In this document: piece after piece, positions 28,441 through 63,744 of the stretch
Layout: each line of letters starts with the position of its first letter
How positions within the stretch are numbered: position 1 is the first letter of the stretch
Source of the DNA: Desulfococcaceae bacterium
GTDB lineage: Bacteria; Desulfobacterota; Desulfobacteria; Desulfobacterales; Desulfosalsimonadaceae
Assembly (NCBI GenBank): GCA_030145385.1
Contig: JAQYVU010000007.1
Span: 17,930-81,929 of the forward strand
DNA: 64,000 nucleotides
Reading direction: 5' to 3'
Position numbers and translations under genes: made by a program
Notes under the pieces: generated by a model
Seen by the model: the letters and a program-made list of their open reading frames with translations, nothing else
The model's database searches: none
What the model was told of the DNA's origin: nothing

Positions 28441-28465
28441 ATTTGACGATGAACTTTCATGGCCC

Positions 28466-28598
28466 CGTAAAAAGCAGCACGATGGCTAAGTTAAAAGTTT
28501 CATATACAAGGCGTAGTGGTTTTCAGGCTCGAAATTATACATGCAGTATCTTGAGTGTCTGAAAAACCGCTACAACGAAGTAGATGGGACTTTTTACG
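28466..28598. repeat. Long-hairpin intergenic repeat, subfamily A, copy 1
   Basis: cgtaaaaag (28466-74) pairs with ctttttacg (28590-98). Inner stem: cgtagtggttttcag / ctgaaaaaccgctacaacg. It shares the ggactttttac and caac(a/g)aag features with the copy at 63595-63744. Confidence 0.7.
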
Positions 28599-28665
28599 AC
28601 GCCATCAACTTTGACGCGTCAATTTTATGCTGAATACTTAAAAATTACCCAGATAATCCGCAGAG

Positions 28666-28728
28666 AACCCAGAGAAAACGGAGAACACAGAAAAAAATTT
28701 TCTCTGTCTTCTCCGTGTTCTCTGGGTT
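28666..28728. repeat. 63-bp imperfect palindrome (purine-rich arm / pyrimidine-rich arm)
   Basis: aacccagagaaaacggagaacacagaaaa... is the near reverse complement of ...ttttctctgtcttctccgtgttctctgggtt (about 27 of 31 positions). Confidence 0.75.
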
Positions 28729-35809: not shown

Positions 35810-35850
35810 TTATGATGCTTCTTTGGTTTGATTTTTAAAAATCAGTCTTT

Positions 35851-36010
35851 AGGGACGTGGAAATAAATAATTGTCCCAGATGGCGAAGGATTTTGGTTCG
35901 TATTCAAGGCGCGATGAAGCGAGCATATCGGGATATTTGAGCTTTGTCGCAACAAAGAATACGGACCAAAAGACATGTAAGATGGGATAATTATTTTTTT
36001 CCACGTCCCT
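35851..36010. repeat. Long-hairpin intergenic repeat, subfamily B, copy 1 (160 bp, 28-bp terminal inverted arms)
   Basis: agggacgtggaaataaataattgtccca (35851-78) matches the reverse complement of tgggataattatttttttccacgtccct (35983-36010) at 26 of 28 positions. Inner stem: ttttggttcgtattc / gaatacggaccaaaag. The core aaggcgcgatgaagc...tcgcaacaaagaa is shared with the copy at 50406-50566. Confidence 0.8.
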
Positions 36011-37418
36011 TATGGTTCTCAACTAGTTTTTCGTGAAGAACACAGATGGCTTTTTCAAAGTCATCTTCTTCAATGACTAATTGAATGTCAATATCACGCA
36101 TGCATTTATGCACAGCCAGCACTTTGATATTTACCGCATCCAGCGCGTTGACGGCTTTGGGCAACGCCCCGGAATCGGTCATGTTGCTGCCGATAGCGGA
36201 AATCAGCGCCACTTTTTTCAGCATGATATCCGCAGCCGGGAACGACTCCCGGATTGAATCTGCGAGCTTTTTGATTGTGGTCAGGGGTTCGGCCACATAA
36301 TGGGTCAGGGTATTGGCATTGGTGTCCTTCGCCAGGTACCTGATTTTAAATTTTGCAAAATGTTTCAGCATCTCCAGATCATGATTAAACCGGCCGACCA
36401 TATCCTGGTCCCAGCATTCAATGGCCGTCACTTTTTTTCTGCCGGCAATAATTTCAACTTTGGGAGTTTCATTTTTATAATCGGTCTGGATGAGAGTGCC
36501 GGGGTGTTGAGGTTCAAATGCATTTTTAATGCGCAAAGGGATACCGCTTTTCCGCATGCCCTTGGCGGCCTGGGGATGAATCGCTTCCATACCCAGATCA
36601 GAAAGCTGATCGGCCACATCGTAGTTGGTTTGGCCGATGGTTTCCACCTTATCGGCGCCGATCAGCTTCGGATCACCACTGCTGAGATGAAATTCTTTGT
36701 GAATAACCCCCTCCATGGCTTCCGTGAGCACCGCAATCTTGCTGAACGTGATTTCGCTGTAACCCCGATCATAGGTATCCATAATCCCTTCATTACAATG
36801 GGTATAACCGGTGACAATCGGCAGCTCACTGCTGAGATTGATATCTTGAAAATGATTTTGGATTTTATCGTCAAACGAAACACATTCCGTCTCCATCCAG
36901 CCGCTCAAATCTACAAAACGGGCATTGACACCGAGCTTTGCCAGAATCTGAAAAGTGTTATGGGCACTGTGGGCTTCTCCTACGGCGCTGAGCATTTCCC
37001 GGACAGTCATCAAATGCTCGTCCAACTGAAAATGGCCGTATGAACAAAGGCGGGTCAAGTCCAGCAGACAGCTTCGCACCCCCTCGATCCGCTCTTTTAC
37101 AAACCGATCCGCAATGGACAGATCCAGCCCCAGCGGTTCAAGCTTCGCATTGATCCGGCACATCGCATCCCCCACCCGGGTAATGGCATCTCCCCATGTC
37201 CAGGATGAATCACTGTCTGAGAACAGGGCATAAACGCCTGCTTTGCTTGATTTTTTATGCTCCAGCAACATATCCGTCACGCCCCCGTAGGCGGATACAA
37301 CAATAATGCGGTTGTAAAGTTCTTCTTTTTTTCGGTTTCCGATTAAAATATTATCCAGCACATCTTTGAATTGAATCATGGATGTGCCGCCGATTTTTTC
37401 TACAGTATGGTTTCCCAT
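35991..37418 (-). CDS. ask: Aspartate kinase, ectoine-cluster type (Ask_Ect)
   Basis: 475 aa. N-terminal VEKIGGTSM kinase motif and an ACT-like C-terminus. It lies immediately downstream of ectC in the same operon. Confidence 0.85.
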   Translation of the reverse strand: MGNHTVEKIGGTSMIQFKDVLDNILIGNRKKEELYNRIIVVSAYGGVTDMLLEHKKSSKAGVYALFSDSDSSWTWGDAITRVGDAMCRINAKLEPLGLDLSIADRFVKERIEGVRSCLLDLTRLCSYGHFQLDEHLMTVREMLSAVGEAHSAHNTFQILAKLGVNARFVDLSGWMETECVSFDDKIQNHFQDINLSSELPIVTGYTHCNEGIMDTYDRGYSEITFSKIAVLTEAMEGVIHKEFHLSSGDPKLIGADKVETIGQTNYDVADQLSDLGMEAIHPQAAKGMRKSGIPLRIKNAFEPQHPGTLIQTDYKNETPKVEIIAGRKKVTAIECWDQDMVGRFNHDLEMLKHFAKFKIRYLAKDTNANTLTHYVAEPLTTIKKLADSIRESFPAADIMLKKVALISAIGSNMTDSGALPKAVNALDAVNIKVLAVHKCMRDIDIQLVIEEDDFEKAICVLHEKLVENHKGRGKK

Positions 37419-49254: not shown

Positions 49255-50260
49255 CAATATGACATTGACGAACCGCGCAATCCGAATACGACGCCTAACT
49301 TCCAATGCACGTAGATCATTTTGAAGACCTGGAGATGGCTTAGGATAATCGCTACCAAAGTCAGTATGGATTTTTCAGACCTTATGTCCGGGACATGATT
49401 TACCGGTATCTGAACTGCGGGGCCCTGCACCTAAAATTTGCCCGGGTGAGATGCCTTGATTGCGGCCATGAGTATCTTTTGCCGTTTTTCCTGCAAGCGC
49501 CGTCATTTCTGCCCCTCCTGCCACCAGAAAAAAGTCATCGAGTTCGGTGAATGGATGTGCGAGGAGGTCTTGAAACATTTGCCACATCGTCAATGGGAGT
49601 ACTCCATCCCCAAACAGCTTCGCGTATTTAATTGGTCTCTGAAATCAACAGCCTCTATGGGCGTGGATATCTACTATGACCATCGCCTGCTGCTTGCCGA
49701 GCTTTCCCTGTGTGCTTGGAAAGTCTTATCCACATATCTGAAAACCAGTGTGAGATAAGATGACACGATTCCCGGCGGCGTAATCGCGGCCCAGATCTTC
49801 GGCGATTTTCAGAATTTTAATCCCCATCTGCACATTATCGCAACCGATGGCTGTTTTTATGAAAACGGCCTGTCGGCGTGCAACGCACGGACAGGCCTTT
49901 TCATCAAGGGGCCGCAACCCGTTGCAAGGGAGTTGGAGGATTCATTTCGCCGGGAGGTCTTTGCCTGCTCAAAAAAGAGGGAATGATCACCGATCTTGTC
50001 ATCGATAATATGATGTGCCAGCATCACAGCAGCTTCAACGTCTATTGCGACAAGACCCTCTGGCCAGACAATGAAGAGGGACTGGAAAATCTGGCCCGAT
50101 AAATTATCCAGCGTCATTTTCATCCGAGCGGATGACTTATATCCCGGCCTCTGAAACAAAAACCGGGACGGCCAGAGTCATTTATCATTCCAAGAATGAA
50201 CACAGCTTTTGCATTCCTGCCCGAAAGCCATCGCACAATTTTTTCAGAAGAATACAAAAA
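49255..50260 (+). mobile_element. IS91-family (Y2/rolling-circle) transposase pseudogene: multiple frameshifts and stops, 3' truncated
   Basis: The pieces lie in three frames: EPRNPNTTPNFQC / HVDHFEDLEMA*DNRYQSQYGFFRPYVRDMIYRYLNCG..ARVRCLDCGHEYLLPF / SCKRRHFCPSCHQKKVIEFGEW...HRQWEYSIPKQLR / ..PGGVIAAQIFGDFQNFNPHLHIIATDGCFYENG / ..ITDLVIDNMMCQHHSSFNVYCDKTLWPDNEEGLENLAR*. These are the Zn-binding and Y2-transposase motifs of IS91-like elements. Confidence 0.7.
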
Positions 50261-50405
50261 CCGAACGGCAAAATTCAGTACAAAGAAAACTATCGCTTTT
50301 CAGGACAGAAACATTGATATGATTTAAAGCTGAGAGAGTTTTCAGTTCTAATGAAATGAGGATAATGGCAGAAAAAGATAATCAATTCCATTTAAAACCG
50401 CTTTT

Positions 50406-50566
50406 AGGGCCGTGGAAAAAATAAAATATCCCAAATAGCGAAGGATTTTGCTTCCACATTCAAGGCGCGATGAAGCAAACATATCGAGATGCGTATGTTG
50501 CATCGCAACAAAGAAGGCGAAGCAATCGACCCGCAAGATCGCGGCATTTATATTTTTCACAGCCCT
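50406..50566. repeat. Long-hairpin intergenic repeat, subfamily B, copy 2
   Basis: agggccgtggaaaaaataaaatatccca ... gcgaaggattttgcttcc..attcaaggcgcgatgaagc...tcgcaacaaagaaggcgaagcaa ... with a degraded right arm, cggcatttatatttttcacagccct. Confidence 0.75.
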
Positions 50567-50995
50567 TATACCCGCCAAAAGATGAACCAAAGGTCTCAAA
50601 CGCCCCCTTCCGTTAACGTAAGTTTTTTGATTGTTAATAACTTAATCTGGTGCAACAAGAATTTGCATTAATTGCAAGGATGGCAAGTACTGAAAGGATT
50701 GCACACTGGCTTTAATGCTTTTTTTGACTCCGAAAATTTCAAAATTGCGCCACCATTGGAGAAAGATTACAGACTAATATTCATATTTTTTGATGGTTAA
50801 CTTAACTCGCCCCTTTTCGTTCCCTGCACGTTCCGTGTTCGCCCAAATATTACATATTTGTAATGATGCAAGTGCAAACTTACAATTCTGTATTTTATTT
50901 TCAAATCCCACAATGTGGCAGCTAAAGTATAATACGGAAAATAACCCAATGGATTTTAAGATTATTGTAAAAAAGAGATCACATCGATGGGTTTA

Positions 50996-63594: not shown

Positions 63595-63744
63595 CGTAAA
63601 AAGTCCGATTTAGACGGCAAAGTACAAAAGCTCCACCAAATCTTATAAAATTGGCGAGGCGCGCAAATCCTGAGCAATGATTAGTAGTTAGCCTACCTTG
63701 AAGCAGCGAGGGATGCAGCGCAACAAAGAATTTGGACTTTTTAC
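63595..63744. repeat. Long-hairpin intergenic repeat, subfamily A, copy 2
   Basis: cgtaaaaagtcc (63595-606) pairs with ggactttttac (63734-744). The core ggcgaggcgcgc...gcgcaacaaagaa is related to the B subfamily. Track ORF 63698..63880 is a translation artefact of it. Confidence 0.7.

Follow-up and report, generated by a model that had tools for sequence, protein, structure and literature searches.

Two long-hairpin repeats from a Desulfobacteraceae genome as probable copies of a MITE with a conserved, strand-specific fold

The Correia/NEMIS elements of Neisseria, ERIC of the enterobacteria, RUP of pneumococcus and bcr1 of the Bacillus cereus group are repeats of 100-200 bp with terminal inverted repeats (TIRs), a short target-site duplication (TSD) and no open reading frame. 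Each folds as a whole into a single long hairpin; the copies are placed intergenically or at the ends of genes, and close relatives differ in which of them they carry. For bcr1, compensatory changes that preserve structure at the RNA level have been reported (PMC3184786). Size, ends, duplication, hairpin form and placement all return in the repeat family described here, which was previously uncatalogued although its kind is well known. To our knowledge, the sequences of the four described families are unrelated to it. Two further groups of elements are relevant. REPIN/REP sequences and their RAYT enzymes resemble the present family in being hairpin repeats, in tens to hundreds of copies, with arms that change in step and an expected action as single strands. 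Among insertion sequences, the IS1031, ISL2 and IS427 groups of the IS5 family make 2-3-bp TA or TNA duplications, and PIF/Harbinger transposons with their Tourist MITEs have TTA or TAA duplications and termini beginning with GG (ISfinder groupings). The present family agrees with these in a TWA target duplicated over 3 bp and in its GGG/GG termini, with a 2-bp TA duplication in a GTG-ended subfamily.

The window, i.e. the whole stretch of 64,000 nucleotides that was analysed, is contig C150 of a 5.24-Mb Desulfobacteraceae MAG of 209 contigs and 44.7% G+C. It contains two repeats of ~160 bp where an earlier note had placed them (35851-36010 and 50406-50566). We consider both to be copies of a non-autonomous MITE of ~158 bp that remains mobile among uncultured bacteria resembling sulfate reducers, a reading to which we give a probability of about 85%. 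The features concerned are:

35852..36009, plus strand: MITE copy 1, 158 bp, GGGACGTGG...CCACGTCCC, scoring 176 bits with covariance model R1
35849..35851, no strand: left TTA of the TSD of copy 1; relatives have a lone TTA/TAA at the site
36010..36012, no strand: right TTA of the TSD of copy 1
35852..35877, plus strand: left TIR and outer stem of copy 1, pairing with 35984-36009 in the fold; consensus helices 1 and 2 covary
35984..36009, plus strand: right TIR of copy 1; its minus strand gives the ask codons G-R-G-K-K-stop
35905..35957, plus strand: conserved inner module of copy 1, consisting of the CAAGGC junction (35905-10), stem 3 (35911-20 with 35941-50), an apical hairpin and the AACAAAG junction (35951-57), with invariant columns A62, G63, C65, A106, A107 and C108 inside
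35991..37418, minus strand: ask, ectoine-associated aspartokinase, whose last codons and stop are now element-derived
50407..50565, plus strand: MITE copy 2, 159 bp, R1 score 134 bits
50404..50406, no strand: left TTA of the TSD of copy 2
50566..50568, no strand: right TTA of the TSD of copy 2

The inverted arms described earlier are real, but the A...T ends assigned to them each take in one base of the TSD, and the element proper runs from GGG to CCC. Copy 1 folds into a near-unbroken hairpin of -80.9 kcal/mol (z = -11.1; none of 200 shuffles equals it). This value belongs to the plus strand, which folds better than the minus strand (-63.7 kcal/mol). Copy 2 has the same architecture with -47.6 kcal/mol and z = -3.4. 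With ~75% identity to copy 1 and a weaker fold, it is the older and more decayed of the two; aligned together with their flanks the copies are 83% identical. The compensated change in the second stem, TTGGTTCG/CGGACCAA in copy 1 versus TTGCTTC/GAAGCAA in copy 2, is borne out by both the alignment and the folds. The two elements contain no open reading frame apart from one of 57 aa, which is a translation artefact due to the hairpin.

Integron attC sites, in which R''/R' core sites (RYYYAAC...GTTRRRY) stand at the hairpin base and arrays are spaced by single cassettes beside intI, were also considered. This class was rejected, as the ends are GGG...CCC with no GTTRRRY, and the copies form no arrays but are scattered over separate contigs, at distances of 7-15 kb or more.

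The earlier note had called for a search for further copies. BLAST, iterated nhmmer and the R1 covariance model, which was built from 19 copies, agree on 19 full-length copies in this MAG plus a few degenerate or partial ones, about 20 in total. They fall into two groups that have the inner ~100 nt in common. The GGG group, with 12 of the 19 copies and both window copies among them, has ends GGGNCGTGGAAAAA or diverged versions of these, and the GTG group, a sister subfamily of seven copies, has ends 5'-GTGTCTCGTCAA. The TIR arms measure ~26-30 bp (GGGACGTGGAAAAAAATAATTG.../...CAATTATTTTTTTCCACGTCCC). The inner 100 nt is better conserved than the element ends; MITEs usually show the opposite, which counts against the MITE reading. 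Across the genus the copy number ranges from 0 to at least 61 per genome; three genomes have none, one of them 98% complete. A scan of the phylum found 19 of 301 genomes positive. Full-length copies of up to 175 bits, as high as the scores of the window copies, occur in other, unrelated families of the phylum in a patchy distribution, a pattern such as is produced by horizontal spread of a mobile element. A BLAST search of plasmids gave no match to the element.

That the repeats are chance palindromes or an assembly artefact has a negligible probability. The one circumstance in favour is the fragmentation of the MAG. Against it stand the z-score of -11 relative to shuffled sequences, the placement of ~20 copies in unique flanks on different contigs, and the presence of the same family in dozens of independent assemblies.

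Target-site duplications, which had been proposed as something to look for, were found as direct, not inverted, repeats. Of 24 GGG-type copies taken from this genome and its relatives, about 19 have the same triplet on both sides, TTA/TTA or TAA/TAA. Near-identical copies carry different flanking triplets, either TTA or TAA, so that the triplet is a true insertion duplication and neither part of the element nor a fixed target of the HUH type. GGG-type copies duplicate TWA, GTG-type copies TA. The duplications were confirmed by empty sites. When joined flanks were searched by BLAST against 13 genomes of the genus, single alignments bridged the insertion point for many copies. Clean empty sites with a lone TTA or TAA were found for the loci on C196, C23 (C23a) and C130, a lone TTA or TAA also stands at the C164 site, and the GTG-type copy on C45 has an empty site with a lone TA; clean empty sites in congeners total five or six, each with a lone TTA, TAA or TA. 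In 11 congeners the site on C34 is without an element. The loci on C158 and C17 look filled in two genomes (G006 and G012), but this MITE family is absent there. The family thus has every defining feature of a MITE apart from a demonstrated autonomous partner: a length below 500 bp without transposase coding, TIRs, a TSD checked against an empty site, and multiple copies at differing sites. The dispersed repeat family with terminal inverted arms, earlier called ERIC/REP/MITE-like, is therefore upheld as such and is specifically of the MITE kind, not of the REP/RAYT type.

These data also bear on the idea that the repeats are REPIN/REP-like single-stranded DNA hairpins copied by a Y1 HUH transposase of the RAYT or IS200/IS605 type. 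In favour of it, the fold belongs to one strand and accepts G·T pairs, and the genome has 15 Y1_Tnp-like open reading frames. However, HUH transposition proceeds without target duplication, whereas here the two flanks of each insertion change together and a single triplet stands at the empty sites. In addition, none of the 15 Y1 genes lies within 4 kb of any hairpin with the junction motif, and the elements are four to five times the length of REP sequences and are without a conserved GTAG-type head. Copying by a Y1 enzyme is accordingly very improbable. The 15 matches to the Y1 domain (PF01797), many of them in unusually long frames of 220-340 aa, lie on contigs that include C92, C50 (two), C83, C203 (two), C207, C102, C49, C149, C59, C125 and C191.

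Both window copies lie at a gene 3' end or beside mobile-element debris, as had been stated. Copy 2 is just downstream of a broken-up IS91-like transposase (49395-50300), the debris of which includes a zinc-finger N-terminal motif. Copy 1 landed three codons ahead of the ask stop. In the relative MAG GH14 (L012; G007 site L170), the aspartokinase of which is 92% identical to that of the window, ask ends ...GAG AAC CAT AAA GAC TGA and is followed by 40 bp and a yitT-like gene with no element between (ask...CATAAAGACTGA, with a single TAA). The empty site reads CAGTCTTTATGGTTC in G007 and gagaaccaTAAagacTGA in L012. In the window the element stands exactly at the position of the GH14 TAA, with TAA on both sides. 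As a result the C-terminus ...ENHKD* of the relative has become ...ENHKGRGKK* in the window, the last residue being replaced by GRGKK. The 78 Ask homologues match only to about residue 467-470, consistent with an element-derived tail. Of 37 copies examined for context, ~12 adjoin a stop codon at -1 or -2. With respect to the flanking genes, 13 of these 37 copies are in sense and 12 in antisense orientation, and seven lie between divergent and five between convergent genes.

The selection on a folded structure that was proposed from two copies was examined on more aligned copies. A MAFFT alignment of 39 copies, made with no structure fitted, gave an RNAalifold consensus of 49 pairs in six helices. 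Of the cells in these columns 92.5% are paired, against 71.9 +/- 0.7% in shuffled alignments, none of 500 of which reaches the observed value. Pairs changed on both sides number 41 of 49, compared to 27.6 +/- 2.0 in the shuffles, and the covariation score is 0.564 versus 0.209. Sliding the 3' partners by 1-3 columns gives a pairing of 39-42% and a covariation score of ~0.1. The stems thus covary far above the controls, and the proposal is supported. Conservation peaks in unpaired columns, namely GAT and TTT of the lower internal loop, CAAGGC (5') and AAC (3') at the upper junction, and AAAAGAC. A hammerhead-like core was considered and rejected, as GAUGA is not kept in the sister subfamily.

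The fold is a property of one strand. In 17 of the 19 copies the same element strand folds better, by 5-25 kcal/mol, and on this strand the stem cells contain 160 G·U against 39 A·C. The excess depends on how widely a pair state is distributed. States private to one copy comprise 15 G·U and 20 A·C, those found in at least three copies 15 G·U and 3 A·C, and those in at least five copies 10 G·U and 0 A·C; the contrast between private states and those in at least three copies has a Fisher p of 0.008. Structure prediction for the opposite strand returned a 26-pair subset of the same helices with no pair supported there alone, which shows that the asymmetry is not an artefact of the strand chosen for prediction. 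The strand symmetry of private mutations indicates that individual resident copies decay neutrally. Selection on the fold acts on one strand and only in variants common to several copies. It would follow that only variants keeping the fold of one strand reach daughter copies. The best reading is that a single-stranded form of one strand, either RNA or ssDNA, would be needed for continued multiplication, because stem changes spread among copies if they are compatible with wobble pairing and fail to do so if they are not. A strand bias of mutation was rejected as the source of the G·U excess, since with copies in random orientation it should give either no asymmetry or a reversed one.

A fold that is conserved and strand-specific, with invariant unpaired motifs and many copies at gene 3' ends, might also be kept by host expression. 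The elements would then be host-functional RNA hairpins, such as terminators, mRNA stabilisers or processing sites, or small RNA genes, and their mobility would be incidental. MITE-like repeats that are transcribed and carry compensatory changes have precedents, such as bcr1 of Bacillus (PMC3184786). Yet the orientation of the copies is random (13:12) while the same element strand folds better in nearly every copy, so that half of them would be read on the wrong strand; like mutational bias, selection on host-level RNA is for this reason a poor explanation. The strand symmetry of the private mutations (15 G·U vs 20 A·C) and the sites that are empty in close relatives argue in the same direction. 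Moreover, Rfam 15 gave no match to the elements at gathering scores and nothing relevant at E <= 5, and scans for promoter and terminator consensus sequences found nothing within the elements. Overall, a host-functional RNA is unlikely. The sole Rfam match at E <= 5 in the window is a 63-nt near-perfect hairpin at 28666-28728 (minus strand), recognized by a microRNA model with E = 0.019 and 33.7 bits, where the gathering score is 78. Such a match is at chance level; a further small palindromic repeat, or a terminator, is the probable identity of the hairpin.

Turning back to the MITE reading, the mechanism should account for the TSD classes, the ends and the fold. A 3-bp TWA duplication combined with GGG termini is what we take to be the signature of the IS5-family groups (IS1031/ISL2/IS427) and of PIF/Harbinger-Tourist. 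On the basis of TSD class and ends, the mobilizing enzyme may be a DDE transposase like that of IS5/IS1031 or Harbinger. Such a transposase, acting in trans, would cut with a 3-bp stagger at TWA (TTA or TAA) and so duplicate the target, with a 2-bp cut at TA for the GTG subfamily. The element itself has no coding capacity, and its interior turns it as a whole into one long hairpin. Insertions persist where they do little harm, in the spaces between genes and, in many cases, precisely at a TAA stop, where insertion is harmless because TAA is itself a TWA target and is regenerated by the duplication. A strand-specific fold is not predicted by plain double-stranded DDE cut-and-paste, and this counts against that mechanism.

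An autonomous element with the ends of the MITE was sought. In the MAG that contains the window there is no IS5- or Harbinger-type transposase and no PF13359 match, and TIR patterns revealed nothing beyond solo arms at C146:24264 and C23:44151, both lacking a transposase. A loose TIR pattern gave chance-level matches only in two congeners (G006 and G003). None of the 40-odd PF01609 (DDE_Tnp_1) loci, which come from eight relatives and four or five further TIR-bearing genomes, has ends that match the MITE. The exact 20-mer TIR was found at 29 loci across 185,000 genomes, all of them MITEs or solo arms, and the unpaired TIRs have no adjoining transposase. A missing autonomous IS is weak evidence, because MAG assemblies often drop multi-copy insertion sequences. 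The only DDE_Tnp_1-type match in the MAG (G000) is a 455-aa ISAs1-like transposase open reading frame at C46:21151-22515, with weak DDE_Tnp_1_assoc and DDE_Tnp_1 matches. One congener (G003; L156, about 1463-2389) carries a 933-bp IS5-family element with TTA flanks and ends GAGCTTATCCGTAAATAA, unlike the MITE ends. At least nine PF01609 matches in that genome have the same 165-aa open frame and were taken as copies of the 933-bp IS. It is a multi-copy IS of the same TSD class within the genus, which we count in favour.

The repeats of the window, called subfamily B in the earlier note, form one of several families with a common inner junction motif, and the junction of copy 1 recurs in other hairpin families of the genome. 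Two of these hairpins are in the window:

28459..28606, plus strand: type I hairpin (subfamily A of the earlier note), with the same junction motif, ends GATGGCNNCGTAAAAAGT and a TSD of about 6-7 bp (AACTTT)
63595..63744, plus strand: type V hairpin, carrying an AGGCGCG...CGCAACAAAGAA junction

A genome scan with a descriptor of the superfamily (stem, [AG]AG[GA]C, stem ... stem, AAC-NNN, stem) gave 124 sites, against 35 in a reversed-genome control, and ~90 were judged real by eye. The asymmetric junction (YAAGGC-stem ... stem-AAC-R-N-AG) occurs in at least five hairpin families with different ends and three TSD classes (7 bp, TWA and TA). Type I is itself a MITE, recognizable from its ends and from AT-rich duplications of 7 bp. 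Types I-III, of which C22:18149-18311, C24:16955-17117 and C116:1487-1601 are examples, are insertion-polymorphic among congeners. The CAAGGC strand folds better in 73 of 75 copies of these three types, and on it G·U exceeds A·C with 128 vs 7 in type I, 67 vs 11 in type II and 47 vs 8 in type III. Between co-directional genes, the CAAGGC strand of types I-III is antisense in 53 copies and sense in five. In type I the stop of the upstream gene (the TGA of T|GATGGC) is overlapped at one fixed position in 14 of 29 copies.

Ends and interiors can also be found in other combinations. The inner module of the present family occurs phylum-wide both with GGG/TWA and with GTG/TA ends. Conversely, GGGACGTGGAAAAAAATAA/TWA ends enclose five or more unrelated hairpins. 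The 20-mer end AGGGACGTGGAAAAAAATAA, in its exact form and together with a TWA duplication, bounds hairpins with unrelated interiors in MAGs labelled as three phyla. They measure 103 bp in Anaerolineales HSG25 (loci L204, L211, L220 and L223); a deltaproteobacterial MAG has one of 182 bp, a Bacteroidota MAG one of 125 bp (L215), and others have hairpins of 165 and 178 bp; further loci are L209, L212 and L228-L230 of MAG AUK125. The occurrence of AGGGACGTGGAAAAAAATAA across phyla reflects either the spread of one transposase specificity or mis-binning.

In view of the above, a more far-reaching interpretation can be considered, although we regard it as rather doubtful. The inner hairpin, with its asymmetric CAAGGC / AAC-R-N-AG junction, might be a strand-specific cis-acting module that must be single-stranded, as RNA or ssDNA, for multiplication, and that is traded between transposon backbones. 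This would be consistent with the occurrence of the junction in at least five families, the shared ends on unrelated hairpins, the excess of G·U over A·C on the same strand in all families and the antisense bias of 53/58 in three of them. If true, DDE-type MITEs would spread via a folded single strand, a mechanism that is undescribed for this class. If the fold is necessary for transposition, it would represent a structural requirement for mobilization of DDE-type MITEs that has not been described before.

The family matters for annotation, since its hairpins yield spurious small open reading frames, break MAG assemblies and alter real genes: an ectoine-pathway aspartokinase gained a Lys/Arg-rich tail, and about a third of the copies lie exactly on a TAA stop. 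With dozens of dated insertions and empty sites in sister genomes, it is also a clean natural data set. In it only wobble-compatible stem changes pass to daughters, suggesting selection on the single-stranded form of one strand during propagation, and ends and inner hairpins move as modules from one family or phylum to another. The interest of the family rests on its recent movement, the rewritten Ask C-terminus, and the strand-specific, propagation-linked fold with modular exchange of ends and core.

Compared to the known systems, the position of the family is as follows. From the IS5 family and PIF/Harbinger it differs in that no transposase gene with matching ends was found, so that membership is inferred from the duplication and termini. 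The difference from REPIN/REP sequences lies in the presence of a TSD, TIRs of ~28 bp and a length of 158 bp, and no RAYT-like gene is flanked by the elements. The family works in the manner of the classical hairpin MITEs Correia/NEMIS, ERIC, RUP and bcr1. The present element is distinguished from these by its host, an uncultured member of the Desulfobacterota, by a 3-bp TWA duplication as opposed to TA in Correia and 5 bp in bcr1, and by an inner hairpin that is better conserved than its ends.
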